64,000 nt of DNA from an uncultured delta proteobacterium. Lineage in GTDB: Bacteria > Myxococcota_A > Polyangia > Fen-1088. The position numbers were made by a program, and so were the translations under genes. Location of the stretch: contig CAWCMR010000025.1 of the NCBI GenBank assembly GCA_963796685.1, positions 2,048,001-2,112,000 on the forward strand, given 5' to 3'. The notes under the pieces are model-generated. The model worked only from the letters and a program-made list of their open reading frames with translations, was not told where the DNA came from and made no database searches. Position 1 is the stretch's first letter, and each line of letters begins with the position of its first letter. Shown here in pieces: positions 25,740 to 40,910 of the stretch.

Positions 25740-26162
25740 AGGTAGATTGTAGCATGCGTAGAGAGGACTTCGGCGGCACCTGCCCTTCTCTCCCAGCGCA
25801 GACGCTGCGAAGCGGGGAGGGCGTTGGGCAAGGAGCGGTCCCGCCGGGCCCCATTTTCTCGCCGTCCCCGACACCTTCCCCTCCGTCGAACGCTCGGACA
25901 AGAACGTTTCTTTTCAACTTAGTGTGTTTCCCACTACATTTGCGACACGCGCTTCCGGGATCTGCGACGGTGGTGTGCGCGCGGTCATGTTTTGTCTGCT
26001 GTCAGCTCCTACCTTTACGTCCAAAATGTCGGCCACCGGGGCTAAGAAAGCGCAGTTAATGATTATTTTTCTTGCCTCTTTCGGTACTGGCCCCAAAATG
26101 TTCCGGCTGCTGCGATGCGCTCGCATTGCGGAACAACATTGGGTTTCGACGGAGGCTATTAC

Positions 26163-29100
26163 ATGACGTGTTCTAAGAACTTCGGACGGTTGCTCCAGGC
26201 CAGTTGCCTGGGGCTCATTGGCATGCTGACGGTCGTCGGCTGCGGCGGGAGTGAAAACCCCGCTCACAACGACGCTGCTCCAAGTGATGGCGGGGGCTCG
26301 AAAGTGCCCAACCTCACCGCTAGTACGGGGACCGTAAGCGTCGGTACCGTCGACGTCGGCAAGATCTCGACGGCGGCTACGGTGGTCATCACCAACAACG
26401 GAACCGGTGCGGGCGTGGTGACCGTGACACCATCCGGGGTCACGGCTTCCGGCTGCGCCGGAAACCTGGCAGTCAATGCACCGTGCACGCTCTCGATCAC
26501 CGCGACCCCGTCGGTTGCAGGTCCGATCACGGGCAGCGTATCCGTCGTCATCGCCGGGGGCAACACCCTCACCATCGGCGTCACCGGCAACGCCGTGCCT
26601 CCGGGTAACTTTACCCTCGACAAGACCGCCATCGACCTCGGCCCGCTTGCTGTCGGCCAGGTCGCTCAGGCCACGGTCACGGTCACGGCCGGGTCGGCGT
26701 TGACCGGGCTCACGACGACCGTGCAAGGTGCGGACGTCAAGCCAGACGCCGCCTCTACATGCACTGCGACCCTTGGTGCTGGCCTGACCTGCACCGTGGT
26801 GGTCGACTTCAGCATGGCCACGGCCGGCACCCCGATCGGCGACGCGATCCTCGTTTCTCAGGGCGGCGTCACCAAGACCGTCCCCATCACAGCCACTGTC
26901 CTGGCGTTGGCCAAGCTCAGCGCCTCGCCGCTTTCGGGGGCCCTTGTGGCAGCGCCGGGCGCGACAAGCGCTCCGCTCTCCATCAATGTCGGCAACACGG
27001 GTGGTATGACGACCGGTCAGATCGTCGTGGCGATTTCCGGCGCGAATGCGGCGGATTTCAAGATCGTCTCTGATACCTGCAGCATCGTGAACCTTGCGGG
27101 CGGCGCGACCTGCGCCGTGGCAGTGGTTTACACCCCGGCTGCCACTGCTACCTTGGCCGAAGCGGCTACCCTGACCATCACGGACAAGGGCGCGGCCGGG
27201 TCCGTGGCCACGGTCGCCCTCAGCGGCACGCCCCAGCTCCCCAGCAACCTCAAGATCACCGGCGGGCCGGACCTTGGCCAGGTGGCCCCAGGCGGCTCGG
27301 GCTCCGAGGTGGTCTTCACGGTGACCAATACCTCCACGACGGCTTCGGGCGCAGTCACCGCGACTGTCGGAAGCTCGAGCGTCACCATCTCCAGCAACAC
27401 CTGCGCGACCAAGGCCACGCTGATCCAGAACGATACCTGCACCATCGGCCTGAAGCTGACGCCTCCGAGCACCGCCCTTGCATCTAGCATTTCGACCCTT
27501 TTGACCGTCTCATCGGCCAGCGGCGACACCACGAACGTGATGGTGACCGGCACCATCCTGAGCGGCGTGGTTCTCTCGGCGACGCCCGCCTCGGTAAGCT
27601 TCGGCTCGGTTCCAGCCAATCAACAGTCGGCTGTCAAGACCGTCACCATCACCAATGGCGGCGCTACCGCGACGAGCATCTTGAGCGCCACGCTCTCGGG
27701 AACGGGTGCGGCCCAGGTCGTTATCACCGGGAACACCTGCACCGGCGTTCTGGCTCCGGCCGCGACCTGCACCGTCTCGGTCCAGTACAGCCCCACGGAT
27801 ACGACCGGCGTCAGTGGCCAGATCACCGTCACCGACGGCGCGGCGACTGTCTCCGTCCCCATGGTGGGCACGGGTTTGGCGCCGAGCGTGTTCACGCTGG
27901 TTACTGACACCTCCGCCTTCTCAGCCTTCGGTCCGACTGTGGTCGGATACACCTCCTCGCCTCAAAGCGTGCATCTCCAGTTAGTGTCCAGCGCTACGAC
28001 CGATTCCGGGGCGATCACTCTTACCATCGGCGGCGCCAATGCAGCCGACTATGCTACGGTGCCTGCGAACACCAACTGCACCCTGCTCCAGGCCGGGCAA
28101 AACTGCGACATCACCGTGGCCTTCACGCCCGGTGCTGTCGGAGCTAGCGCGGCGACCCTCACCGTGACGGGTGCCAAGGGTGGCACGTACACGTTCGACC
28201 TCAAGGGCACCGGCCTGGCCCTGGTTCAGCTCGTCCCGCTGGGTCAGACGGCCACCACGATCGCCACGCCCTACACAGGTCTCGATTTCGGCCAGCAGCC
28301 CAATGCCACGCTAGGCAACGTCTTCGCGTATCGTGTCGTGGTCCGCGGCGCAACCAATCCTGCCGCGACCTCTACGGTGCCCAGCATCGCCATGGCACCT
28401 GGCACGCCGCCGGACTTCACCTACGTGACAGGTACAACAGTTGGGGACGCCACTACGTGGGCGCCCGCCCCGACCAATCCGTGCAATCCCGGTCCAACCC
28501 TGACCCTCCCGGCAGACGCATCTTCATCTCCGTGGATTGTCGGTGCCAAGACGTCTACGAATCCCTCGATCGCGCCTAATGCCCCGGTTTCCACGCTGAA
28601 TACCGATGAGCAGTCCACTGTTTTGTACTGGACCTGCGACTTCTACGTCCAGTTCAGCCCGACCAGTGGCAAGAGTGCGACGCCGAAGACGGCGACGCTC
28701 ACCGCCACCGCCTCGGCTGGCGGGACGGCGACCCTGACCCTGACCGGCACCGCGAGCGGCCCGCTCACTATCACGCCCTCGGTGACCTTCGACCCGACTC
28801 CGCTCGGCACGAGCAGCGCCGATGTCCAGGCAGGTAACAGGACCTTGACCGTCGTCAACAAGGCGGTTAACAGCATCAGCCAAGGGCCGCTATCGGTGGC
28901 ACTGGGAGGTGCCAACGCGGCCGATTTCGCGATCGTTTCAGACGGTTGTTCCGGCCAGCCGCCGCTCGTCCCCAGTGGAGGCCACTGCGATATCGTCGTT
29001 GCCTTCACCCCGAGTGTGGCTGCTGTCGAGACAGCGACACTCACCGTGACGGCTTCGAATACGGGAGAAACTGCGCAGGCTACCCTCAAGGGTACCGGCA

Positions 29101-31805
29101 GCGCGTCTTCCGCCATCACCGTGACCCCGACCGCGGTGGCGCCTGCCGCCGTGGACTTCGGCTCGGTGGCTCAGAACAACGTCGGTGTGTGGACCAGCTT
29201 CACCGTTACCAATCCAGCGACGGGTACGGAAACCGGCCCCCTCGCCTACTCGCTTGGTAGCGAAGATCCATTCGAGCTGTACACGCCCGCGGCTGCGGGT
29301 GTCACCGCGTACCCGGCTGGCTTCTGTGGCGATCCCTCCGGCGGTGCTCAATCCACCTCGTTGGTCCCTGGCGCAACCTGCATCATTCAGGTCCGCTTTA
29401 TTCCGACGCTAGTTGGTGCGGCGAGTGGCTCACTGACCGTGGGTAGCCTTGCCGCTATTCCGCTCAAGGGCATGGGGACGGCCCAGCTGGTCCTCTCCGG
29501 AAGCGCCATCACGACGGTCAACAGCGTCCAGACCCTGGCCTTCGGCAATGTTGGCGTGGGTGCGACAGGCACGCAAACCTTCACCGTCACCAACAATGGT
29601 GCAGCCACCTCGGCAGGCAGCGTCGCGTTGACGCTATCCAACAATGCTGCCGACCCGGCGGTCTTTGCCGCAGGTCTCCCGCCCCACTTCAGTCCAGGAA
29701 CCACCGGTTGTGGGTCGACTCTGGCCGGCGGTCAGAGCTGCCAGATGACCCTCATCTACACGGGCGTTGCCCTGGAGACTGTGTCCCAACAGATCGTCAT
29801 CTCGAATTCAACTCCGCTCGGCACTACGAATCCCGTCAACGCGTCGCTGGTTCTCACGGCTAAGACCGTGAATCCGGCACTGCTTGCGCTGTCCGGCTTC
29901 GACTATTACACGCCGCCTACGCCAGCTGATGGATCGGGCCAGGCGATCGACCTAGGGGCAACGCCGATTGGTACGTCCACCGGTGTGCTTACGCTGGTAT
30001 TCGTCAACAACGGAGCCGTCGCTGCTACAGGGCTCCAGGCCTCATGGCCGTTCACCAATCCTCCCGGGAACACCGACTTCTCGATTGCGGCAGAAAACCA
30101 GGGGACCTGCTTCGGGATCGGTGGAACGCTCGCACCGCAGCAGACCTGCACCGTCAACGTTCGTTGCACGCCGTCGGCTCTAGGTGACCGCGTTGCCGAG
30201 CTTCAACTGAACGGCCTGGCTGCGCCCGGCCCCGTCGTCAAGCTTCACGCGACTGGGATTGCGCCCACGAACGTGTACGCCTTCGCGCAAGGCGGAAGCA
30301 ACTCGTTCTACAACTTCGTCGGAGCCACAACCGCTCTGCCCGGTGCGGGGGCCAAGGCCTACTTCACGTTGGTCAATGGCACGACGAGCCCGATTCCCCT
30401 CGGAACCAGCACCACTGACTTCACGGGTGGCTCGGGCACCACCCTCAGTGTCATCGGGGTCGCGCTTCCAACCACCGAGCCTTCTACGGACTTCGCCCTG
30501 TCGAAGCCGACAGGCGTGGCAGGCATCGCAAATCCGTGCGGGACGACGCTCAGTTCAGGCGGTCAATGCACCTTCGCGGTGACCTTCACGCCCACGTGGA
30601 ACGATACCGACCATCTCTACCGATGGGCCAACGTGACCACGTCCGTAGGGAGCGCCACTGATATCGTTGGGGTCTTTGGTCGGGTGCAGATGCCCGCCAT
30701 GCTGCAGCTCAGCGCCGCGCCTTCGGTGGGGCAGGTAACTGTCACTGCGGCGACCACTAGCGTGGCCGGCTCCGTCGACTTCGGTCAAATCCTGACCGGG
30801 CAACTCTCGTCCGAGGTCTTCACCATCACCAACATCGGTGACGTGGCCACGGCCGGAAATGTGGGGTTGAAGATGATCGGCACGGGGTCGTATGCGGTCC
30901 TTGGCACCTCGACGTGCGGAAGCTCTCCGCTCGCTCCGGGCGCAGCCGCAGCCTGCACCGTGACCGTTAACTCCCAGCTCACGTCCAGCACCGGAACTCG
31001 GACGGGTCTGTCGGTCCAAGCGGTCGACCTCGGTGTCCCAACGGCCACCGGCGAGGAGAGCCTGCAGACCTTCGACCTACAGGCCGAGGTCGTGAACCAG
31101 GCAAACCTCACGCTCAATCCCACTGGTACGACGTTTGCGACCAGCACCCCGGCGGGCTCGACGGATGCTGAGAGGGTCACGATTACTGTGGCGAATGGAG
31201 ATCCGGCGAACGATGATGCGTCGAATCGACAGAACACCACGGCGCTCATCGTCACCCTGTCGGACTCGACGAACTTCGCGGTGGACAGCGCCAGCACCTG
31301 TCTGAATCCCTCGACGCAGACGTACAAGGCACTACCGCTCACCGCGAGCGGAGTCGATAGCGAGTCCTGCACGATCATTGTCAAGTTCACTCCGCAGGCC
31401 GCTGGAGCTAAGAGCACGACCGTGTCGGTAAGCGCGACGACGGGAGGCACGCCAACCCCAGTCTCCCTGACGGGAACGGGATTGAGCACGCTGACCTCGG
31501 ATGCGAGTGCCAACCCGGCCGCGCCCACGACCTTCACCATCACCCACGGTGGTAGCGGGACGACGGGTCTTCTCACAGAGTCGCTGACGGGAACCAACGC
31601 CTCCGCCTTCGTCATCAGCGACGATCAATGCTACGGCACTTCGCTCACAGGCAATGGAGACACTTGCCAGGTTACGGTGACCTTCGTCGGCACCTGCAGC
31701 GCGACCACTGCCCAGACCGCCACCCTCAAGGTGACGGATGGAACGGCGAACAGCACCGTGAGCATTCCGATGTCGGTTGGCGGCGCGACCGCTGGCTGCC
31801 CGTAG
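26163..31805 (+). CDS. Giant Thr/Gly-rich lipoprotein of tandem Ig-like ASH/choice-of-anchor-D domains
   Basis: GGAGG RBS at 26151; lipobox VVGC; repeated xFG.V......T.TN.G...F....xC...L..G..C...V.F.P...A.LT..L.GTG units. Confidence 0.85.
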   Translation: MTCSKNFGRLLQASCLGLIGMLTVVGCGGSENPAHNDAAPSDGGGSKVPNLTASTGTVSVGTVDVGKISTAATVVITNNGTGAGVVTVTPSGVTASGCAGNLAVNAPCTLSITATPSVAGPITGSVSVVIAGGNTLTIGVTGNAVPPGNFTLDKTAIDLGPLAVGQVAQATVTVTAGSALTGLTTTVQGADVKPDAASTCTATLGAGLTCTVVVDFSMATAGTPIGDAILVSQGGVTKTVPITATVLALAKLSASPLSGALVAAPGATSAPLSINVGNTGGMTTGQIVVAISGANAADFKIVSDTCSIVNLAGGATCAVAVVYTPAATATLAEAATLTITDKGAAGSVATVALSGTPQLPSNLKITGGPDLGQVAPGGSGSEVVFTVTNTSTTASGAVTATVGSSSVTISSNTCATKATLIQNDTCTIGLKLTPPSTALASSISTLLTVSSASGDTTNVMVTGTILSGVVLSATPASVSFGSVPANQQSAVKTVTITNGGATATSILSATLSGTGAAQVVITGNTCTGVLAPAATCTVSVQYSPTDTTGVSGQITVTDGAATVSVPMVGTGLAPSVFTLVTDTSAFSAFGPTVVGYTSSPQSVHLQLVSSATTDSGAITLTIGGANAADYATVPANTNCTLLQAGQNCDITVAFTPGAVGASAATLTVTGAKGGTYTFDLKGTGLALVQLVPLGQTATTIATPYTGLDFGQQPNATLGNVFAYRVVVRGATNPAATSTVPSIAMAPGTPPDFTYVTGTTVGDATTWAPAPTNPCNPGPTLTLPADASSSPWIVGAKTSTNPSIAPNAPVSTLNTDEQSTVLYWTCDFYVQFSPTSGKSATPKTATLTATASAGGTATLTLTGTASGPLTITPSVTFDPTPLGTSSADVQAGNRTLTVVNKAVNSISQGPLSVALGGANAADFAIVSDGCSGQPPLVPSGGHCDIVVAFTPSVAAVETATLTVTASNTGETAQATLKGTGSASSAITVTPTAVAPAAVDFGSVAQNNVGVWTSFTVTNPATGTETGPLAYSLGSEDPFELYTPAAAGVTAYPAGFCGDPSGGAQSTSLVPGATCIIQVRFIPTLVGAASGSLTVGSLAAIPLKGMGTAQLVLSGSAITTVNSVQTLAFGNVGVGATGTQTFTVTNNGAATSAGSVALTLSNNAADPAVFAAGLPPHFSPGTTGCGSTLAGGQSCQMTLIYTGVALETVSQQIVISNSTPLGTTNPVNASLVLTAKTVNPALLALSGFDYYTPPTPADGSGQAIDLGATPIGTSTGVLTLVFVNNGAVAATGLQASWPFTNPPGNTDFSIAAENQGTCFGIGGTLAPQQTCTVNVRCTPSALGDRVAELQLNGLAAPGPVVKLHATGIAPTNVYAFAQGGSNSFYNFVGATTALPGAGAKAYFTLVNGTTSPIPLGTSTTDFTGGSGTTLSVIGVALPTTEPSTDFALSKPTGVAGIANPCGTTLSSGGQCTFAVTFTPTWNDTDHLYRWANVTTSVGSATDIVGVFGRVQMPAMLQLSAAPSVGQVTVTAATTSVAGSVDFGQILTGQLSSEVFTITNIGDVATAGNVGLKMIGTGSYAVLGTSTCGSSPLAPGAAAACTVTVNSQLTSSTGTRTGLSVQAVDLGVPTATGEESLQTFDLQAEVVNQANLTLNPTGTTFATSTPAGSTDAERVTITVANGDPANDDASNRQNTTALIVTLSDSTNFAVDSASTCLNPSTQTYKALPLTASGVDSESCTIIVKFTPQAAGAKSTTVSVSATTGGTPTPVSLTGTGLSTLTSDASANPAAPTTFTITHGGSGTTGLLTESLTGTNASAFVISDDQCYGTSLTGNGDTCQVTVTFVGTCSATTAQTATLKVTDGTANSTVSIPMSVGGATAGCP

Positions 31806-31836
31806 TCGCTAGTCGCTAGACCTAGCATCCAAAGTG

Positions 31837-31871
31837 AAACCCCGGGGCCTCGGCTCCGGGGTTTTTCTTTT
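31837..31871 (+). terminator. Rho-independent terminator
   Basis: AAACCCCGGGGCC-TC-GGCTCCGGGGTTT then TTCTTTT, 31 nt after the stop. Confidence 0.85.
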
Positions 31872-31951
31872 GGTGCGCCTAGGATGACCGTCGTCTTGGG
31901 GGTGGAAATTCCCCCGGAAGGAGACCATCCCAAACGAAGCCGCCGCGCCGC

Positions 31952-32021
31952 GCGCAGTGGAGGTGCCAGAGACTATTGGTCGCTGGGGAGGTGCGCAGTG
32001 GAGGTGCCAGAGACCTATTGG
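31952..32021 (+). repeat. Two tandem copies of GCGCAGTGGAGGTGCCAGAGAC(C)TATTGG
   Basis: Copies at 31952-31979 and 31993-32021; the core recurs at 35955-36032 and 37274-37295. Confidence 0.85.
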
Positions 32022-32309
32022 CGCGAGGCGTCTACATCTATGGACGGCCTAGACTAGTGCTGAGCGACAATTACATCTCCCCACGTGTGAATGTAGTTGA
32101 CGTCCAGCACGCGGCCAAGGTCTGCAGTCCCACCAGGTGCGCGGTGCAATCGAAGGCGGGAAGCACGAGCCCATCGCGAACCATCGCCAGTACCACCAGG
32201 GCGTTGCGTAAGTGGAAGGCCGCTTCGGCAAGGATAGAATTACATCCAAAAACCCCATCCGAGGGTACTTCTTCGTCCCTAAACCTCGACCGGAAATGCC
32301 ACGGAAATA

Positions 32310-32443
32310 CCCAGGGTACTACCCTTCTCTCGCAACTTTCTGCTTCCGTTTCCGAGAAGCTATGGATGACACTCGCTCGTCGGCTCGGTACACGCCGGCG
32401 CTGGGGCGTGCAGCTATTCGGCAGCGACGGCGAAGCAACCTGA
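32310..32443 (+). pseudogene. Decayed 5' end of a Y1/RAYT-like transposase with its leader
   Basis: ~75-bp imperfect direct repeat of 37312-37385, including ATGACACTC start at 32366; early stop at 32443. Confidence 0.5.
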
Positions 32444-32708
32444 TCTGCTTCCACTCGTTCGAGCGCCTTCTCGCCTGCCGCGCGGTGGGCGGGCTGGTGA
32501 ATGTAACGCGAGGATGCTCGAGGACTTTCGGATGCCGGGCACATCTGGCTGTCGAGCAAACCTAGGAAGGAACCCCCGCGCGGATCGCTGCTTGCAGACG
32601 AGCGCTCGTCGGGGTCTTCGAGGGAGGAGGTGTAGGCGTGGTCGACGCCGTACGTGGCAATTCGACTTTCCGCTGCATGCTAGCAACGACATCATATTTA
32701 CGGTAAAT

Positions 32709-33875
32709 ATGGTGGCTATGTATACACGGACGCTAGGGCTCCCAGAAAGCTCGTTCTTCCTCTTCGGTCCGCGCGGGACCGGGAAGACGACCTGGTTGCG
32801 GCAGCAACTCGGGGCCGCTCGCCGGTACGACCTCTTGCTTGAACGGGAGCATCTGCGACTGTTGCGTGACCAGGAGGTGTTTCACCAGGAGGTCGAGGCG
32901 CTAAAGTCAGGGTCTTGGGTAGTCGTCGACGAGGTCCAGCGTATGCCGGCCCTACTCGACGAGGTCCAGGACATCATCAGTCGGCATGGCAAGCATATAC
33001 GCTTCGCACTGACTGGTTCAAGTGCGCGGAAGCTGAAGCGGGGACAGGCAAATCTACTGGCGGCCCGAGTGATCAATCGGCGCTTCTTCCCCTTGACTGC
33101 GTCGGAAATGGGCGACGAGTTTAGCATCGACGAGGTTCTTCAATTCGGAACCCTGCCCGCGGTAGCAGCCGAAACGGAGGCAAGGGCGAAGGTCGACCTG
33201 CTCGACGCGTACGTGGAAAACTATATCGGGCAGGAGATCCGCGCCGAGGCCGCGGCCAAGCGACTCGATTCCTTCACGCGCTTCATGGTCATCGCCGCAT
33301 TGGCGAATGCTCAGGTCACCAACGTGGCAGCGATTGCGCGCGATGCGGCAGTGGCAAGACCCACGGTCAACGGTTACTTCGACATTCTGGTGGATACGCT
33401 GATCGGCACTTGGCTGCCGGCTTGGCGTCCACGCGCCAAGGTCAAGGAGGTGGCTCACCCGAAGTTCTTCTTCTTCGACAGCGGCGTTGCGCGCGCCATG
33501 GCGAGCCGACTGCGCGAGCCCTTGGAAAGCGCCGAGAAGGGCCACCTCTTCGAAACCTACATCTTGCATGAGCTTCGTGCCCGGATGAACCAAGCCGGTA
33601 CCGGCGGCGAATTCGGCTACTGGCGCACGCCTTCAGGAACGGAGATCGATTTTGTCTGGACCCGTGGTGGTCGCTCGGTCGGTATCGAGGTCAAGAGCAG
33701 CAACCGGTGGAAGTCGGAGTACTCGCGTGCGCTTGCCGAGCTTTTCGGCGAAGGCGCTCTGAGCTCGGCATTCGGCGTCTATCTGGGCGAGCACGAGATC
33801 AAGGATCGCGGTATCCGCGTGCTGCCACTCGCAGCATTTCTGCAAGCGCTAGCGGCGGGCGAGGTGATCGGCTGA
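32709..33875 (+). CDS. AAA_14 ATPase with DUF4143 (PD-(D/E)xK-like) C-terminus
   Basis: GPRGTGKTT, VVDEVQR, LTGSSARKL, HPKFFFFDSG, YWRT..G.EIDF...IEVK. Confidence 0.9.
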   Translation: MVAMYTRTLGLPESSFFLFGPRGTGKTTWLRQQLGAARRYDLLLEREHLRLLRDQEVFHQEVEALKSGSWVVVDEVQRMPALLDEVQDIISRHGKHIRFALTGSSARKLKRGQANLLAARVINRRFFPLTASEMGDEFSIDEVLQFGTLPAVAAETEARAKVDLLDAYVENYIGQEIRAEAAAKRLDSFTRFMVIAALANAQVTNVAAIARDAAVARPTVNGYFDILVDTLIGTWLPAWRPRAKVKEVAHPKFFFFDSGVARAMASRLREPLESAEKGHLFETYILHELRARMNQAGTGGEFGYWRTPSGTEIDFVWTRGGRSVGIEVKSSNRWKSEYSRALAELFGEGALSSAFGVYLGEHEIKDRGIRVLPLAAFLQALAAGEVIG

Positions 33876-34130
33876 CCGGGAGGTAGACTTCCAAGCCCGC
33901 AAGCGGGCATTGGCCGGCTCTTGAATCAACGTGCCGTGGCGCGCTCAGAAAACGAGCCCTTCAGGTGTCACCAGGACCCAGGCCCGTGCAACCCACCCAC
34001 CCACGACTACCCAGTGTGGGGATTTGCGATCACGCTAATAGCCGCGGTTCCAGAGGAGTCCTCGCGTGGGCAAGGATAGAATTATGGCGCTCCTGGCCCC
34101 GAGCTGCCTACTGGATTGCTCGTACCTATA

Positions 34131-34159
34131 TTGCATTAACTTAGCACTAGAGATATCTT
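34131..34159 (+). promoter_or_regulatory. Sigma70 promoter giving a leaderless abiEi transcript
   Basis: TTGCAT-17-TATCTT; GTG start 6 nt downstream; no RBS. Confidence 0.6.
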
Positions 34160-34165
34160 ACTGCC

Positions 34166-34801
34166 GTGAGATTTGATGCGCTTCTGGCGCTGGTTGCTGA
34201 CGAACCTGTGTTCGCTTCCGCCCTTCTGCTGGCCGGGGACGTGTCAGCTGCGCAGGTGCGTCTGCAGCTGTCGCGCTGGGTGAAAGCTGGCCGGTTGCTT
34301 CGACTCCGCCGCGGGCTCTATGCATTGGCGCCGACGTGGCGGAAGGTGGAGCCGCACCCGTTCCTTGTGGCGAACCGGCTCCAGCGAGGATCCTACGTGA
34401 GCCTGCAGTCGGCCCTCGCTTTTTACGGGGTCATTCCCGAGCATGTGCCGGTGGTGACCAGCGTCGGGCAGGGGCGCCCAGAAACGCTACACAATCCTCT
34501 GGGTGGATTTCAGTTCAACCACCTCACCGGGACGCTCTTCCTCGGCTATTCAAGGATGGAGGTTGCCGCCCGACAGTTCGCCTTCGTGGCCTCGCCGGAG
34601 AAGGCCCTGCTTGATCTCGTTTACCTCACCCCAGGCGCAGATTCCCAGGACTACCTCCGAGAGCTTCGCCTGCAGAGCTCGGAGGCGATGGACGTGTCGA
34701 CGCTGGACGAGCTTGCGCGGCGAAGCGGCAAAGCCAAACTGGTCAGGGCAGCCCGACTCGTCGAGAGCCTATTCTCGGTGGCGGAGGGAGACTCACTATG
34801 A
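34166..34801 (+). CDS. abiEi: Type IV TA antitoxin AbiEi
   Basis: QLSRWVKAG.LLRLRRGLY, SYVSLQSALAFYGVIPE, ASPEKALLD. Confidence 0.88.
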   Translation: MRFDALLALVADEPVFASALLLAGDVSAAQVRLQLSRWVKAGRLLRLRRGLYALAPTWRKVEPHPFLVANRLQRGSYVSLQSALAFYGVIPEHVPVVTSVGQGRPETLHNPLGGFQFNHLTGTLFLGYSRMEVAARQFAFVASPEKALLDLVYLTPGADSQDYLRELRLQSSEAMDVSTLDELARRSGKAKLVRAARLVESLFSVAEGDSL

Positions 34802-35604
34802 AGGAGTATCTGCGGCAACTGACCGCACAGGCGGACAACGACCTTGCCCGCGGGTGTTTGGCTCGTGAGTATCTTCAAGCGCGCGTCCTCGAGTCGTTGC
34901 AAGACGAAGGCGTGTTTTTGCGCTGGGCCTTCGTGGGCGGCACCGCGTTGCGATTCCTGTTCGCCATTCCGAGGTTCTCGGAGGATCTGGACTTTTCCGT
35001 ACCCTCGCCGGGGGCCGACCCTGGCTTCAGGCCGATCTTGACCGTGCTCAAGCGGGTCTTCGAACGCGAAGGCTACCGGATCGAGGTCAAGGTCAGCGAA
35101 CACAGGACGGTGGCCACGGCGTGGGTGAAGTTTCCCGGACTGCCGCATGAGCTTGGTCTGTCGCCACGTGCGACCCAGACCCTTTCCATCAAGGTCGAAT
35201 TGGACAAGAACCCACCAGCGGGAGCGGGTATCGAAACCTCGGTCGTTCGCCGGCACGTGACCCTGCACCTCTGCCATCATGACAAGCCTTCGCTCCTGGC
35301 GGGAAAGCTCCACGCCATCCTGAACCGCCCCTGGACCAAGGGCCGCGATCTCTACGACCTCGTTTGGTATTTGGCGGATCGCACCTGGCCAGCGCCCAAC
35401 CTGGACATGCTCAACTCCGCATTGGCGCAGACCGCCTGGAAAGGCGCCGTCATGACGGCAACCAACTGGCGGGAAGAAATCCGCAAGCGGACGAACATGC
35501 TCGACTGGGAACACGCTCGCGCCGACGTGAGGCCATTCCTGGAGCGGGAACGCGACCTCGATCTGGTGACCAGGGAAGTCCTGAGCAAACTGTTGGGCAG
35601 CTAA
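34798..35604 (+). CDS. abiEii: Type IV TA toxin AbiEii nucleotidyltransferase
   Basis: REYLQ, FVGGTALR, RFSEDLDF, AGKLHA, KGRDLYDL; ATGA overlap with abiEi. Confidence 0.92.
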   Translation: MKEYLRQLTAQADNDLARGCLAREYLQARVLESLQDEGVFLRWAFVGGTALRFLFAIPRFSEDLDFSVPSPGADPGFRPILTVLKRVFEREGYRIEVKVSEHRTVATAWVKFPGLPHELGLSPRATQTLSIKVELDKNPPAGAGIETSVVRRHVTLHLCHHDKPSLLAGKLHAILNRPWTKGRDLYDLVWYLADRTWPAPNLDMLNSALAQTAWKGAVMTATNWREEIRKRTNMLDWEHARADVRPFLERERDLDLVTREVLSKLLGS

Positions 35605-35779
35605 GGTCACAGCCGGTGGCGCGCCGGGCGCCCAGGCAGTTGTGCACGCGGGACGCACGGGACACCCACCACGGGACGGCCCTTCCTGGAAGTTTTCCTG
35701 CCCCCACAAGACGACGTTGCAATCGCGCTCATAGAGTCTGCGCGCGCCTGGGCGCCACAGGTTCTCCCTGCCTTGCTTT

Positions 35780-35952
35780 TCAGCCAGTCGGTGGGCAGAT
35801 GAGCGGAATCGCCTCACGCTTGTTCCGCCGGTAGATGCGGAAGTCCTTCCGATCGACGGTGATCACCGGCAGCTTGGGATGGAGCTCGCTCATGCGGATT
35901 AGACAAAGATCCGCAAAGTCGGGGTTGCGATCGGCGTAGCGCGCGGCCAAGG
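35780..35952 (-). pseudogene. C-terminal half of a PIN/VapC toxin, 5'-truncated
   Basis: Manual translation LAARYADRNPDFADLCLIRMSELHPKLPVITVDRKDFRIYRRNK / REAIPLICPPTG*; no start codon; ends at the AGACCTATTGG repeat. Confidence 0.7.
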
Positions 35953-35954
35953 TC

Positions 35955-36075
35955 AGACCTATTGGCTAGCCCGCGGGGGAGGTGCCAGAGACCTGGGAGA
36001 GCGAGCCCTGAGGTGGTGCCAGAGACCGATTGCCCGAGGAGTAGGCGAAGGCCTGCCGGACATCTCTGGACACCT
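35955..36075. repeat. Cluster of GGTGCCAGAGACC repeats
   Basis: Half copy 35955-35965, copies 35978-35994 and 36015-36032, degenerate inverted copy 36063-36075. Confidence 0.75.
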
Positions 36076-36136
36076 ACTGTCCCGACGATTCAGAATGGCC
36101 CACCCCGCGCCTTTCGAACCCACCTCCATGGTCCGT

Positions 36137-36592
36137 CTACTGGAGGAGACGCCGATCAAAGACGAAGTCGGTGGGTGGTCGAAGGTGAATCTCAGAAAAG
36201 TCGGGGTGTTTAGGATTGATCAGAAAATTCACCTCATCAGGAACGATTGCACTCGGCACCGCAAGGATAACTGAATCGCCTGCGTTGACCCAGTCATCGC
36301 CAAGGCGCTGCAGAGACAGCGGCGGTGGTTCGTGTTGCCAGTCCTTCGGGAGCTGCTGGGCAGGAAAGGTTCTCATCAACGCTTCATCGAAGTCGAAGGC
36401 GAACAACTTGTAGGGAGCCGTCGGCGCGATGTGAACGCGAACCTCGAGCACAGCAAGAGATTGGTGTTCGCTGGAATAGATTATCGGTACTCCGACGGAG
36501 TTCCATCGCCCGCCGTACCGCCTCGCCCCTTCACCGTCGAAAGCCGTCTTCTCTTGAGGTGCGGGCACCAGGCGCCAACCGGTACGTATCAA
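36137..36592 (-). CDS. RES-domain toxin (NAD+ phosphorylase)
   Basis: DGEGARRYGGRWNS.G, SLAVLE..VH, VPSAIVP.E.N.LINP.HPDF. Confidence 0.92.
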   Translation of the reverse strand: MIRTGWRLVPAPQEKTAFDGEGARRYGGRWNSVGVPIIYSSEHQSLAVLEVRVHIAPTAPYKLFAFDFDEALMRTFPAQQLPKDWQHEPPPLSLQRLGDDWVNAGDSVILAVPSAIVPDEVNFLINPKHPDFSEIHLRPPTDFVFDRRLLQ

Positions 36593-37200
36593 GTATAGAC
36601 TCCGTACTCGATTCTGCCCAAAAGGTTCTCAACCTCGCGCGCACCAACTTCGCTTTTTGCATAGTCGAGGGGCACGGCACCCGCGAGACCGAGTTGGGGA
36701 GAGTTGAGCCATTTGTTTGCGTCGTCCTTGCTTCCGAGGACCTTGATCGCCTTGCTGAGCAGCAAGGCGAAGCGAACAACACGATCTGAAACCAAGGGGG
36801 TAAGATTGGACCCCGTGGTCTTGCGACGGTGGAACGTCGTCTTGGACAGGCCGACGAGGGGGAGAAGCCTTTCCGATGAGACGTCGAGACTGTCCTGGAG
36901 AACGGTCAATTCGGACTCTGGTAGGCCAGCTTCGGTGGCTTCGACTTGTAGAGAGATGGGGACGTCATGGGTTGGACCGCGTCCCATCGCAGTGTCTAGA
37001 TAGAATTGGACTACGCCTTGGCGAAGCTTGACGTGGACTGAGACCTTGCGACGGCTGGGCGTCGCTGCTTTCTTGGCAAGCCGGTGGGCTTCCCTGGTGG
37101 ACGCACCGAGAAAGCCACACCGGGTGTCCGTCGGAGTTTTCTTGGGAGACGCCCGAAGTGGAGCTTTCTTGGCACGCGCCGCTGTCGAGGTGGTTTTCAT
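36589..37200 (-). CDS. Xre/MbcA/ParS antitoxin
   Basis: TFHRRK, SDRVVR, WL..P..GL.G..PLD....E.GAREVE.LLGRIEYGV. Confidence 0.9.
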   Translation of the reverse strand: MKTTSTAARAKKAPLRASPKKTPTDTRCGFLGASTREAHRLAKKAATPSRRKVSVHVKLRQGVVQFYLDTAMGRGPTHDVPISLQVEATEAGLPESELTVLQDSLDVSSERLLPLVGLSKTTFHRRKTTGSNLTPLVSDRVVRFALLLSKAIKVLGSKDDANKWLNSPQLGLAGAVPLDYAKSEVGAREVENLLGRIEYGVYT

Positions 37201-37209
37201 TTGACACTA

Positions 37210-37238
37210 ATGATAGTTGCATTTGGTACGTCTGGCAA
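37210..37238 (-). promoter_or_regulatory. Sigma70 promoter of the xre-res operon
   Basis: Minus strand TTGCCA-17-TATCAT, 9 nt before ATG 37200. Confidence 0.6.
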
Positions 37239-37273
37239 GCGTCGGATATTCGAGATTGTGGTTCAACTCCGGA

Positions 37274-37295
37274 GGAGGTGCCAGAGACCTATTGG
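37274..37295 (+). repeat. GGAGGTGCCAGAGACCTATTGG repeat copy
   Basis: Identical to 32000-32021; 16 nt upstream of the transposase leader. Confidence 0.85.
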
Positions 37296-37311
37296 TTAGC
37301 TGACGACAAAG

Positions 37312-37470
37312 CCCAGGGTACTTTTCCGCGCAACTTTCTGCTGCCGTTTCCGAAAAGCTATGCATGACACTCCCTCGTCAGGTCGCGTCCGGTCGTGTCT
37401 ACATGGTCATCCGCCGCTGCTCCGAGCCGCGCTCTTTCTTGCGCCCCGATGACTACAACAAAAGCCCCTA
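37312..37470 (+). pseudogene. Truncated N-terminus of a Y1/RAYT-like (IS200-type) transposase
   Basis: ATG 37364: MTLPRQVASGRVYMVIRRCSEPRSFLRPDD resembles the MxxPR...G..Y.ITRRC..R.F.LRP start of these transposases; no HUH or Tyr part follows. Confidence 0.6.
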
Positions 37471-37487
37471 CGGCTGCCCGGATCCCT

Positions 37488-39119
37488 CTACCGCGGAATG
37501 CTCTTTCCCGCGGAGGCTTCGATCTTCCTGAAGTCCTCGATGTGGGCCAGGAAGACGCGCACGATGTCGGGGTCGAATTGGGTGCCGCTACAGCGTTCCA
37601 TCTCGCCGCAGGCGATGACGTGGGGCAGGGCTTTGCGGTAGGCGCGGTCGGTGGTCATGGCGTCGTAGGCGTCGGCCACGGCGACGATGCGACCGATGGT
37701 GGGGATGCGCTCGGCTTGCAGGCCTTGCGGGTACCCCGAGCCGTCCCAGGCCTCGTGGTGGCAGTAGCAGCCTGGCACGATGTCGCGCATGAACGGGATG
37801 GGCTCTAGGATGCGGCGGCCCTTGGCCGGGTGCGAGCGGAACATGGCCAGCTCTTCGGGGGTCAGCTTGCCGGGCTTGTTGAGGCGGTCGTTGCGAATGC
37901 CGATCTTGCCCACGTCGTGCAGCAGACCGGACTTGACCACGGTTTCGATCTCCTCGCTCGGCAATCGCATGCCCACGGCGATGAGGCGCGCGTAGGTGGC
38001 CACGCGCTCGGAATGGCCGCGGGTGTAGCGGTCGGATTCTTCCAAGGCGTGGGCGAAGCCGATGATGGTCTGCTTGAAGTTCTCTTCCAGCGAAATGTTG
38101 GCGTGGACCAGGTCTTCGTTGGCGTCGACCAGGCTTTCGTACAGGCGCGCGTTCTCGATGGAGACCGCGGCGCGGCTGCCGAGCACGTACAGCATCTTGC
38201 GCTGGCCCTCGCTGAATTTGGCACCCTTGGTGTAGCTGTAGGCGTTCAGCATGCCGATGGTGCGGCCCTTGAGCTTGAGCGGAATGGAACAGAAGCTCAC
38301 CAGGCGCTTTTCGGGCGGGCCTGACAGAAAACGAAAGGCGCGCGACCCGTGCACCAGCAGGGGCTTGTCTTCTTGCAGAAGCGGCAGCACCTCGTTGAAG
38401 TTGAGCGGCGGCGCGGGCTCGCTGGCCTCGAGGCGAGGCGAGACCTTGCGCGCGTGCTCGATGAAGGCGCCGGGCAGGTCGCTGGCGTGGCGTGCGTCGC
38501 CCGGACGTTCCAGCATCAGGTTGACGATGTCGGCGTCCACCGCGTCCAGCACGGCGTCGAGCACGAGGTCGAGCACCTTCTCGACGGACAGCGAGGTCGC
38601 GATGGCCTCGCTGATCTTGTAGATGGAAAGCGCGTCCTTGAGGCGGAGGTTCTCGTGTTGCAGGCGCTGGCGGTCGAGCCCGCGCTTGACGATGTGGATG
38701 ACCTCCTCGACTTTGAAGGGCTTGAGGATGTAGTCGTACGCCCCGTGCTTCATGGCCTCGATGGCGGTCTCCACCGTGCCGAAGCCGGTCATGATCACCG
38801 TCAGCACCGGAATCCCGAGCTCGGTGATCTTCTCGATGAGATCGAGCCCGTTCATCTTGGGCATCTTGAGGTCGGAGATGACCAGGTTGTAGCTGCGCTT
38901 TTGCAGCTCCTCCAAGGCCTGCACGCCGTCCTCGACGGTGCGCACCACGTAGCCTTCCAGGCCGAGAAAGTCCGACAGGATCTCGCGGATCACGCGCTCG
39001 TCGTCGACCACCAGGATGCGCGGGCTATCCGGGTTGAAGGTGTACTCGAGTCGCTGGCTTACGGCGCCAAGCTCGTCGGAGCTCTCCTCGGGTGTGCTGC
39101 CTAGAGGGGTCGTGGTCAT
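37488..39119 (-). CDS. REC-GAF-HD-GYP cyclic di-GMP phosphodiesterase
   Basis: ILVVDDE...SDLKMP; YTRGHSERV, LLHDVGK, HHEAWDGSGYP, ADAYDAMTTDRAYR. Confidence 0.93.
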   Translation of the reverse strand: MTTTPLGSTPEESSDELGAVSQRLEYTFNPDSPRILVVDDERVIREILSDFLGLEGYVVRTVEDGVQALEELQKRSYNLVISDLKMPKMNGLDLIEKITELGIPVLTVIMTGFGTVETAIEAMKHGAYDYILKPFKVEEVIHIVKRGLDRQRLQHENLRLKDALSIYKISEAIATSLSVEKVLDLVLDAVLDAVDADIVNLMLERPGDARHASDLPGAFIEHARKVSPRLEASEPAPPLNFNEVLPLLQEDKPLLVHGSRAFRFLSGPPEKRLVSFCSIPLKLKGRTIGMLNAYSYTKGAKFSEGQRKMLYVLGSRAAVSIENARLYESLVDANEDLVHANISLEENFKQTIIGFAHALEESDRYTRGHSERVATYARLIAVGMRLPSEEIETVVKSGLLHDVGKIGIRNDRLNKPGKLTPEELAMFRSHPAKGRRILEPIPFMRDIVPGCYCHHEAWDGSGYPQGLQAERIPTIGRIVAVADAYDAMTTDRAYRKALPHVIACGEMERCSGTQFDPDIVRVFLAHIEDFRKIEASAGKSIPR

Positions 39120-39144
39120 TCGATCAAGCTCGATAGACCTGAGT

Positions 39145-40815
39145 CTACCTCAAAGACACGCGGGCGAAGAACTCGTCCAGCTTTTCCCTGCGAGCCGGGT
39201 CGAGGTAATCGAAATTGACGCCACGGTCCGTAACCTCCCAGAATTGCCTGTCGTTCACGGCAACCAGCTCGGCCCGAATCGAGGCCATACGCTCCGGTTT
39301 CTCGCCGCGCATGTCGGCGCAAATGCGGTCGGCCTGGGGCAGGGCGCCCTTGGACAGGTAGAAGGTCGCCAACCTGATCTGGGCCTTGCGCACGCCGCGC
39401 AGGGTTGATTCCTGGGCATGGGTCTCCGCTTCCTTGTCGACCTCCAGGAAGATGTTCAGCAACGTGTCATGGCAAGCGATATCCTGGGTGTACGTGCGCT
39501 CGCACAGCACCGCCAGGTCGTGGGCCGCGGTTTCGGTGACGAAGCCCAGATCCGCCTTCTGCGCGGTTTGGCCGTAGTAGGCGAGGCAGCGGCCGATCTC
39601 CATCACCAGATCGCCGAAGCCCTGGGGAGGTTTCGCTTCCTTTCCGCCTTCGCCCACGCGATGTCCCTTGCGCAGGATGTGCTCGGCCAGCATTCGGTAC
39701 TGGTGCAGGATGTTGTAGCAGGCGCGCACGTCGCGCTGGTTGAGGGCGCTGCGCAGGTAGGTGTTGAAGTAGCGGATGGCCAGCACCATGACTTCGCGGT
39801 CGCCGTGGCGCAGGGCCTCTTCGGCAATGTAGCGGGTCTCGATGGCCACCACATGGGCGAGCTCGGGCAGGTGGTCGAGGGCTTCGGAAAAAACGCTGCG
39901 GAAGTGGTGCAGCACCTTCCACTCGACCCAAGTCCTGTTGCCTTCGAGCGCGTGTAGCGAGTCCGGCGTGAGCGCGATGAAATCGGGGTTACCGTGGAGG
40001 CGCGACCCGAGGACGAACCACTCCGCCGGCAAGGCGGCCTTCTCCTCGAGGAACCTGACCGCGAACTCGCGCAGGGCCGTGACCGCGCCGGTGGCGATGA
40101 TCTTGTCCTTTTGGGCCGCCGTGTTCACCGCGATGTCCGACAGGTGTTCCAGGCCGGCCACGCAGCTCGCCTGGCGCACGTCCAGGTCGTGACGATCGCG
40201 GCGCGCTACCCCGCGCGCCAACACGGCGTCCAGCACCTGCTGCCCAATGCGCGTGATGACCTTCTCGGGATCGAGGAACGCGAACACGTAGGCGAAATAG
40301 GGGATGAGCAAGAGCAGGCTGGCGGTCACCACCACCGTGGTCATGGCCACCGTGGCCCGCGGCACGAAACCGCTGGTGACCACGATGCTGACCCACACCG
40401 CGTTGATGCAGGCCACGACGAAGAAGCCCATGATGGCCAGGTTCTTCTTGTCGCGGAAAAACATCTCGGCGATACGCGGGGTATACCGGGTTGCGGCGAG
40501 CTGGACGACAATGGACACCACGGTGATGGCGATGCCGAGCACGGCCACCACCACCTGGGCCAAGCTGCCGAGGGCGTTCTGCAGCGTCTCGGCGTCGAGA
40601 TCCACCAGCAATCGCCAGGCCCCGAGGTGCTCGGCCGCGGGTGTGCGCCGGCCGAAAAACGCCACGTCGAGCAGCCAGAAGACGGCGAAAAGGACGAGCG
40701 ACAGCGCCAGCAGGATGCCGATGCCCGAGGGAAAGCGCGGACGCCACCTTGGCGGGGTGGCCGAAATCGCCGGCGCGCCGCCGACCGTGCTGCTGCGTGG
40801 CTGATCGCGTTTCAC
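39145..40815 (-). CDS. DUF2254-like membrane protein
   Basis: TM segments with VVQLAATRYTPRI; helical cytoplasmic domain. Start uncertain. Confidence 0.7.
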   Translation of the reverse strand: MKRDQPRSSTVGGAPAISATPPRWRPRFPSGIGILLALSLVLFAVFWLLDVAFFGRRTPAAEHLGAWRLLVDLDAETLQNALGSLAQVVVAVLGIAITVVSIVVQLAATRYTPRIAEMFFRDKKNLAIMGFFVVACINAVWVSIVVTSGFVPRATVAMTTVVVTASLLLLIPYFAYVFAFLDPEKVITRIGQQVLDAVLARGVARRDRHDLDVRQASCVAGLEHLSDIAVNTAAQKDKIIATGAVTALREFAVRFLEEKAALPAEWFVLGSRLHGNPDFIALTPDSLHALEGNRTWVEWKVLHHFRSVFSEALDHLPELAHVVAIETRYIAEEALRHGDREVMVLAIRYFNTYLRSALNQRDVRACYNILHQYRMLAEHILRKGHRVGEGGKEAKPPQGFGDLVMEIGRCLAYYGQTAQKADLGFVTETAAHDLAVLCERTYTQDIACHDTLLNIFLEVDKEAETHAQESTLRGVRKAQIRLATFYLSKGALPQADRICADMRGEKPERMASIRAELVAVNDRQFWEVTDRGVNFDYLDPARREKLDEFFARVSLR

Positions 40816-40910
40816 ACCCACCTCACCCCTAACGCATACCACGAGGCGTGGATGCGGAAAATGCGGCATTGAGATTCACGATCCCGCGACAACCGCAGAA
40901 GGCCATGTCT

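Follow-up and report, generated by a model that had tools for sequence, protein, structure and literature searches.

The window analysed here, a 64,000-nt stretch of a soil myxobacterial genome (contig CAWCMR010000025.1, positions 2,048,001 to 2,112,000), carries at about 31.9-37.5 kb a 5.7-kb islet of variable toxin-antitoxin (TA) and defence genes between two core genes. We found that the short repeats and truncated gene starts of this islet resemble the ends and 5' remnants of two families of elements whose genes are like those of REP-associated tyrosine transposases (RAYTs; REP, repetitive extragenic palindrome), here called Fam1 and Fam2. We consider it probable, at roughly 0.6, that the islet consists of decayed RAYT-like element ends with cassettes nested among them in a recombination-prone site. 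An initial annotation had described an integron-like array in which a HUH transposase captures TA and defence cassettes by means of its own repeats.

According to our reading, a hotspot between the convergent 3' ends of the two core genes would gather selfish modules (AAA-DUF4143, AbiE, RES-Xre and a PIN-like pseudogene), and two related families of RAYT type (HUH, single-tyrosine) resembling insertion sequences (ISs) would have inserted in it repeatedly. These elements would then have decayed to their ends, leaving a 22-bp repeat as the left-end unit of Fam2 and a duplicated leader and gene start as the left end and 5' stub of Fam1, while the short repeats, together with 16-17-bp microhomologies, may serve as substrates for the insertion, deletion, duplication and permutation by which the modules are shuffled. 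We infer the order of these events, and that recombination rather than a transposase made the junctions. The assembly examined comprises 7.3 Mb in 26 contigs, with 88.6% completeness and 6.5% contamination.

Repeats and truncated gene starts

The end-like features of the islet are as follows.

31953..32027, + strand: cluster 1 of the 22-mer, with two Fam2 left-end-type units (31959-31979; 32000-32021, exact) and a stuttered GGGGAGGTGC prefix
32259..32390, + strand: Fam1 left end, with REP-type units CCGAGGGTACTT (32259) and CCCAGGGTACTA (32310), leader, ATG at 32367 and 8 codons
34003..34023, + strand: possible degenerate Fam1 right-end-type unit ACTACCCAGTGTGGGGATTTG, suggested by likeness, judged by eye, to the right ends of loci L045 and L048
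35955..36078, + strand: cluster 2, with partial unit AGACCTATTGG (35955-35970), left-end-type units 35978-35999 and 36012-36033, and an inverted right-end-type unit (36060-36078)
37268..37301, + strand: cluster 3, a single exact 22-mer (37274-37295) that precedes Fam1 unit CCCAGGGTACTT by 16 nt
37303..37465, + strand: Fam1 left end with its leader and a RAYT-like 5' stub of about 34 codons (ATG at 37364), which adjoins the HD-GYP gene at its 3' end

The 22-mer GGAGGTGCCAGAGACCTATTGG occurs exactly at 32000-32021 and 37274-37295 and with three mismatches at 36012-36033, whereas none of 100 shuffles gave three matches; a repeat search added the units at 31959-31979 (one base deleted) and 35978-35999. 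The placement of this repeat in three clusters at module boundaries, as first described, was confirmed, all three clusters being intergenic and at module borders. Allowing up to three mismatches, the whole assembly yielded three matches, all in the islet, and the five genome-wide matches to the 12-mer core GGTGCCAGAGAC likewise lie inside it, all on the + strand. The 22-mer is therefore not a dispersed repeat family in this genome, contrary to the annotation. As a candidate genome-wide REP it was rejected, since the 10-mer GGTGCCAGAG has 20 sites compared with 63 for the reversed control word. The AGGT-N7-ACCT mini-stem ascribed to the repeat is absent from minimum-energy folds and is unsupported, the folds of single units being no more stable than those of shuffles (z +0.50 and +0.37). 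The only notable hairpin, which is REPIN-like, is formed by the pair at 36015-36074 (-14.9 kcal/mol, z -2.29, equalled by 4 of 200 shuffles); the inverted degenerate unit at 36060-36078 was read by eye.

A profile built from ten copies of the 22-mer and run genus-wide gave strong matches only to its training copies and to single sites in three genomes (G009, G010 and G003), together with weak clustered matches adjoining a second, distantly related gene, Fam2. This RAYT-like gene of 307 aa matches the NCBIfam model REP_Tyr_transpos at E 4.9e-11 (42.7 bits, cut-off 80) and Pfam Y1_Tnp (PF01797) at 18.1 bits, below the cut-off of 23. Upstream of it, on the gene strand, are stuttered arrays of GG(A/T)GGTGCCAGAG, which read ...CTGGGGAGGTGCC TGGGGAGGTGCCAGAGttttctgg... 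and are followed by a leader with ...aagcaacttc.... The exact 10-mer GGTGCCAGAG is present there on the gene strand in 4 of 10 Fam2 loci (5, 4, 5 and 1 copies) and inverted in none of the ten, and the complement, TGGCACC or TGGAACC, is found downstream of the gene in 10/10; within the units there is a stem of 4-5 bp, CCAG(A)/(T)CTGG. This layout, with units upstream and their complement downstream, identifies the 22-mer of the window as a Fam2 left-end unit and 36060-36078 as a right-end-type unit. The 3' half of the 22-mer has diverged (CCAGAG-ACCTATTGG versus CCAGAG-ttttctgg). The proposal of a HUH transposase with its own repeat family was thus right in kind, the 22-mer core being a RAYT-like end repeat, but the repeat (Fam2) and the stubs (Fam1) differ in family. 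The expected intact transposase flanked by the 22-mer was not found in the window's genome, where the 88.6%-complete assembly contains fragments of Fam2 only; one of them, on contig C11, has AAGGTGCCAGAGatttctgg just upstream.

A 19-mer pattern, searched with no chance estimate, gave three stretches across 185,579 species genomes, two being metagenome-assembled genomes (MAGs) of the same genus and one a Polynucleobacter match that is likely due to chance. In metagenomes the pattern gave 15 stretches; related stuttered flanks were seen by eye in five (L023, L025, L029, L033 and L036), and many of the other ten lay within predicted open reading frames (ORFs) or in DNA whose GC content differed greatly. 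Single 22-mer-like units were also observed between RHS gene pieces at RHS/YD-repeat loci (L071, G009:C108; L074, G001:C4), another type of cassette-swapping locus. The sequence GATAGAATT was tried as an element-associated end motif and rejected, as it was not associated with other elements.

The leader and ATGACACTC start are duplicated (32331-32387 versus 37329-37385) with 89% identity over 57 nt and more matches upstream, which bears out the initial description; the right copy also translates as described (MTLPRQVASGRVYMVIRRC...). This right stub, starting at 37364, matches residues 2-34 of Fam1 and has one full-length paralogue in the assembly, the 316-aa Fam1 protein encoded on contig C5. 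No intact transposase was found in the islet, both stubs (8 and about 34 codons) ending before the HUH and tyrosine motifs. In full-length Fam1 copies from the genus, H60-x-H62 (within S58-N59-H60-x-H62) and Y120-A121-x2-N124-P125 are invariant (20/20). An AF2 model based on the alignment of these 20 copies (pLDDT 76.4) was compared with the PDB by Foldseek, which returned 17 matches at E <= 0.001. The first in rank was 4er8_A (E 7.6e-6, TM 0.75 on the target), a REP-associated tyrosine transposase bound to a REP hairpin, and the next were TnpA proteins of IS608, ISDra2 and IS200, with those of IS608 and ISDra2 at E 1.6e-4 to 1e-3. At the sequence level, REP_Tyr_transpos (NF047646) matched residues 6-139 at E 1e-7 (32 bits, cut-off 80), Pfam, including Y1_Tnp, gave no match, and a sequence profile run against the PDB gave nothing relevant. 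Relatives of Fam1 at E <= 1e-5 numbered at least 2182 among 8000 database proteins scored, and many carry the JGI label 'REP element-mobilizing transposase RayT'. The invariant H-x-H and Y-x3-NP motifs and the top fold match support the view, already advanced in the annotation, that the truncated starts of the islet are relics of a HUH/Y1 RAYT-like gene.

Across 13 members of the genus, Fam1 gave 0-20 gene matches per genome, many of them fragments. The leader cgcgcaactttc...ttccgagaaccca.gcATG is conserved upstream of all 22 full-length copies examined, preceded by one to many tCCGAGGGTACTT units, each with a short, copy-specific and often stuttered prefix. At the 14 of these 22 loci that were printed, inverted unit arrays of GTACCCTCGG (or ATTACCCTCGG, ACTACCCTCGG and similar) lie 200-400 bp past the stop codon. 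Between near-identical copies, the sequence shared outside the gene is limited to about 50-145 bp on the upstream side and 130-240 bp on the downstream side; since the arrays differ between such copies, they evolve quickly. The prefix before the CCGAGGGTACTT unit is 8-12 nt long and peculiar to each copy (for example, GGAAGCCCC, GGAAATCCCG and TAGACCTCTC), with partial stutter copies; where the genes of sister copies are 97% identical, the prefix is the same or almost so, while the arrays differ. Units of the CCGAGGGTACT type ([CG]AGGGTACT) occur 49 times genome-wide, including 24 on C5, mostly around the intact Fam1 gene, and three in the islet, at 32261, 32312 and 37314.

Several further observations concern Fam1 copies and relics. 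About 3 kb upstream of the intact C5 copy are two tandem blocks of about 590 bp containing 17 tCCGAGGGTACTT units with several prefixes (L004:3990-4800 = G000:C5:206990-207800); more units lie nearer the gene and inverted units downstream (L004:5850-5950, 8170-8210), and a ParE-toxin ORF (L004:6071-6472) is situated just upstream of the left end. Relics of Fam1 are mostly 5' stubs (G004, G003, G001, G007 and G002), with homology ending at about codons 16-17 in three cases, at 30-34 in four (including the stub ending at 37465 in the window) and at 39-57 in six. At L124 a second left end begins where the first stub ends, that is, as nested insertions.

Gene modules and variation at the site

The islet lies where a gene for a 1896-aa Ig-repeat protein and a gene for a receiver-GAF-HD-GYP regulator, both identified by Pfam, converge by their 3' ends. 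Domains were assigned with Pfam in the 12 ORFs of 26115-40869, defence genes were typed with PADLOC, and the following features accompany the ends listed above.

26115-31805: giant Ig-repeat gene (Pfam)
31825..31876, + strand: terminator-like hairpin, an inverted repeat with 25-nt arms and a T run, after the Ig-repeat gene; left border of the islet
32106..32242, - strand: N-proximal piece of a split PIN-like pseudogene (blastn, 96% identity to 6137-6002 of G002 locus L010)
32227..32242 and 34069-34084, + strand: 16-bp direct repeat GGCAAGGATAGAATTA flanking segment 32243-34068
32709..33875, + strand: AAA_14 and DUF4143 ATPase (Pfam E 2.9e-31 and 1e-17), PADLOC defence candidate PDC-S01 (8.7e-56)
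33917..34005, + strand: fragment of an approximately 85-bp dispersed repeat downstream of AAA-DUF4143, recognized by similarity to copies in G004
34166-34801 and 34798-35604, + strand: AbiEi antitoxin and AbiEii nucleotidyltransferase toxin (Pfam; PADLOC 3.2e-53 and 2.2e-64)
35736..35954, - strand: C-proximal piece of the PIN-like pseudogene, contiguous with the 32106-32242 piece in G002
35938-35954 and 32106-32122: 17-bp repeat AGCRCGCGGCCAAGGTC at the outer ends of the split PIN-like gene
36137-36592, - strand: RES toxin (Pfam 8e-28)
36589-37200, - strand: Xre/MbcA-ParS antitoxin (Pfam 1.2e-15)
37488-39119, - strand: HD-GYP regulator gene (Pfam)

Among the modules named at first, AAA-DUF4143, AbiEi/AbiEii and Xre-RES were recovered by Pfam and PADLOC. 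The supposed PIN remnant was not, having no Pfam or NCBIfam match even at E up to 10 or 1, and a weak atlas lead points to PIN clusters (score 0.86). The GC content of the islet dips modestly, to 0.58-0.61 from 0.63-0.67 in the flanks.

The position of the units at gene borders, like that of REPs downstream of genes (PMC3733652), and the direct repetition within clusters could also suggest sites for a dedicated recombinase (attC-like or Xer/dif-like), or regulatory or terminator REPs without a role in mobility. However, the scanned ORFs contain no recombinase domain, the units match Fam2 transposon-end arrays, and five copies in 7.3 Mb, with the 10-mer rarer than its reversed control, are too few for a population of regulatory REPs. 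In addition, no Rfam family was matched over the region, where the sole match was His_leader on the terminator (E 0.25). We regard this interpretation as highly improbable.

Three smaller repeats of the islet were observed besides these. The 33917-34005 repeat has 11 dispersed copies among the matches listed in G004 (85-87% identity) and one copy in the window's genome; it looks like a miniature inverted-repeat transposable element, as one G004 copy has inverted termini of about 21 bp. The sequence GTGAATGTAGTTGACGTCCAGCA (32085-32110), abutting the PIN-like piece on its left, recurs in G004 directly upstream of a Fam1 left-end array (L040:~2790-2815). An imperfect GC-rich repeat of about 16 bp, GCGCGCCGGGCGCCCA / GCGCGCCTGGGCGCCACA (35619-35634 versus 35741-35757), brackets 100 bp of unique sequence that separates the AbiE block from the PIN-like piece and is the third microhomology at a module junction.

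The site is an insertion hotspot that varies from strain to strain. All 13 genus genomes have the HD-GYP gene, and in the ten loci fetched its neighbouring content ranges from empty to about 10 kb. For example, G010 has about 270 bp between the flanking genes, and G001 has only AAA-DUF4143, an 83.5% amino acid homologue without leader or repeats. A distant AAA-DUF4143, DUF222 and HipBA occupy the site in G012, a MazE-type gene that in G007 and a DUF433 gene that in G009. In the closest relative, G002, we found MazE-PIN, a broken AbiE, a PIN-like gene, Fam1 fragments, DUF4160/DUF2442, HicA and a degenerate 22-mer-like stutter. The variation in cassette content anticipated by the annotation is thus seen across relatives and, as described below, in co-occurring strains. 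The HD-GYP orthologue of G010 (L014:15861-17491, G010:C15) matched in three overlapping pieces in different frames, suggesting that it is frameshifted or mis-assembled.

Comparison with G002 revealed rearrangements. The AbiE block of G002 is a 97% nucleotide copy of that in the window with a 193-bp insertion in AbiEi. The window has as an extra segment 32243-34068, in which a Fam1 left end with 8 codons is followed by AAA-DUF4143 and the region 3' of it. The PIN-like gene is contiguous in G002 and split around AbiE in the window, a circular permutation with the 17-bp repeat. The junctions lie at 16-17-bp direct repeats unrelated to the 22-mer.

Strain variants were seen in contigs from four soil runs of one study, none of which covers 36020-37274; at two of the variant joints the sides comprise only 33 letters at 90% likeness. 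A contig with the contiguous PIN-like form (depth 9.2) comes from another strain, given its 13 differences in 288 nt. A form without 34015-34078 (joint 34014->34099) was found in two runs, and in one contig, with sides of 33 letters, the 22-mer and TTAGCTGACGA run straight into 32247. From these joins, a co-occurring variant has the unit 32247-34014 next to other sequence on either side. Such alternative joins, at three places in the islet and in one case at about twice the depth of the window form, together with the 6.5% contamination, might mean that sequences of co-occurring strains were combined in the MAG contig at short repeats and that the punctuated array is partly a product of mis-joining. 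We consider this very unlikely. The 22-bp repeats are shorter than the words usually used in assembly, G002, which was assembled independently, shows at the same site the AbiE block together with the PIN-like pieces, as well as a RAYT stub and a related array, and soil contigs at least 99% alike cover several junction-free stretches of the window.

Cassette capture by RAYT-like elements

A different explanation is active capture, in which non-autonomous units with RAYT-like ends, their transposase replaced by TA or defence genes, would be moved in trans by a full-length copy such as C5 Fam1 and pile up in the islet. Segment 32243-34068 has the composition expected of such a unit, with two Fam1 REP-type units, a leader, 8 codons, AAA-DUF4143 and, nearby, a right-end-like unit, and it is absent from the otherwise colinear G002. 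The window's genome also has an intact Fam1 gene with conserved catalytic residues. However, IS200/IS605-type transposition makes no target duplication, and the segment is flanked by a 16-bp repeat. Moreover, the repeat units are poor hairpins, and the AAA-DUF4143 segment was not found as cargo at two loci, its matches being confined to G001, at the same site and without ends.

The flanks of intact copies were compared using 3 kb on either side of 20 Fam1 loci and 20 random 7-kb loci of the same genomes, with a greedy pick of 150 ORFs per set; the minimum ORF was 67 aa in the cases and 79 aa in the controls, and all counted case hits were at least 88 aa. TA domains (ParE, HicA, YoeB, PIN_3 and ParE/antitoxin) flank 5 of the 20 intact Fam1 loci, compared with 1 of the 20 random loci (two-sided p = 0.18), or 5/20 compared with 2/20 when AAA-DUF4143 is also counted (p = 0.41). 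By these values, enrichment of TA genes near intact Fam1 is not significant, which weakens the case for capture. Genes of other mobile elements were present at 6/20 Fam1 and 1/20 random loci (p = 0.09), which favours the decay reading.

Fam1 relics in relatives gave a suggestive picture. In 3 of 10 relics that retain a left end and at most 57 codons of the gene as a stub, a TA module lies within 1.3 kb downstream, and two TA operons, Phd-PIN (G003:C180) and HicA-HicB (G004:C11), begin 6-16 nt after the stub on the same strand. Of the other stubs, one has a GNAT gene directly behind it, one has IS21 and one a further Fam1 left end. This test took all ORFs of at least 60 aa at E <= 1e-4; L132 is the same locus as L040, and 4 of the 14 fetched loci were dropped (L128, where another copy follows; L134, an internal fragment; L135, at a contig end; and L136, with residues 1-175). 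It is suggestive only, since its ORF set is more inclusive than that of the controls and one locus is shared with the flank test. By eye, a tRNA-like sequence (reverse strand, L129:430-495, G003:C180) was noted ahead of the left end, stub and Phd-PIN, at a distance of about 110 nt.

Repeats bound to cassettes were rejected as a candidate explanation, as a RES-Xre homologue (77% nucleotide identity, G012:C49) and the AAA-DUF4143 gene of G001 have neither 22-mer nor REP flanks. Nor were TA genes enriched at the motif as had been proposed: 22-mer-like units in other genomes of the genus had a Pfam TA domain within 1.5 kb at 0/7 loci, two of which are in RHS loci, a further point against capture. 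An antitoxin-like ORF beside a 22-mer in G006 had no Pfam hit, and this example therefore depends on our own reading. With homologous cassettes elsewhere lacking the 22-mer and the G002 junctions at unrelated repeats, nothing shows the capture by a HUH enzyme that the annotation had suggested.

Several points weigh against decay and recombination as the source of the islet, and the first two favour capture. The TA modules behind 3 of 10 Fam1 stubs, two of them co-oriented at 6-16 nt, are more ordered than passive decay would be, and the unit 32247-34014, with different flanks on both sides in the strain variant, behaves like a discrete mobile unit. The 17-bp terminal redundancy around the permuted module is unlike what simple deletion predicts, and the order of events could not be reconstructed. 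On balance, active capture seems unlikely to us, and decayed ends with nested cassettes remain our preferred reading.

Relation to known systems

The two families share several features with the REPtron, or REP-RAYT system (TnpA-REP, class 2 of TnpA_Y1; PMC6006769), including the HUH and single-tyrosine core, with 4er8 as the best fold, and genes bracketed by inverted arrays of their own short repeat (PMC6006769, PMC3733652). They differ in copy number, being multi-copy with many fragments, whereas RAYTs, whose groups were described by Bertels et al. 2017, are typically single-copy (PMC5581495). Their units form short, weak hairpins behind a stuttered prefix that is specific to each copy, in contrast to classical REPs, which are GTAG-tagged palindromes of 20-40 bp (PMC3733652). 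Furthermore, the window's genome has no dispersed repeat population, and both proteins fall under the NCBIfam and Pfam cut-offs of the curated models. With IS200/IS605 elements, Fam1 shares a related fold, IS-like copy numbers and decay to fragments, a tendency reported for TnpA-IS200 copies (PMC6006769). However, the protein is twice as long, with an unrelated C-terminal half, and the ends are multi-unit arrays rather than single subterminal hairpins. Long forms of TnpA_Y1 with C-terminal domains have been described, with medians of 148-325 aa per subclass (PMC6006769, Quentin et al. 2018).

The islet resembles an integron as a spot that gathers small, often TA, modules separated by a recurring short repeat. 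The analogy fails, however, on the integrase, on attC-like sites and on uniform cassette orientation: no IntI-type integrase is encoded by the 12 ORFs scanned (26115-40869 only, the rest of the window being outside the scan), the modules are on both strands, the repeats match RAYT-like end arrays (attC likeness being judged by eye), and homologous modules elsewhere lack the repeat. Chromosomal defence/TA islands provide a parallel in their conserved flanks and variable cargo, here across ten genus members, and in the GC dip; in the islet, what lies between the cargo genes is not integrase or phage remnants but relics of two RAYT-like families.

The presence of such relics among TA and defence genes suggests, without proving it, that RAYT-like elements help move these genes, and units bounded by Fam1 or Fam2 ends may carry cargo. 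It is doubtful, though conceivable, that the two families act throughout the genus as cassette carriers, with ends that bracket TA/defence genes and are moved in trans into a few hotspots, which would be a functional counterpart, based on HUH enzymes, of the cassette traffic of integrons. Discussions of RAYTs usually treat them as single-copy, domesticated partners of REPs and REPINs, whereas the present families are two long, multi-copy, IS-like relatives whose stuttered end arrays are hypervariable. The decayed ends of these elements run through a TA/defence islet that varies between strains, and in relatives TA operons stand directly behind left-end stubs. Should intact copies still act on these ends, defence and addiction modules would have a new route of spread in single-strand HUH transposition; otherwise, the locus remains a clear example of short transposon-end relics that mark, and promote, rearrangement in defence hotspots.

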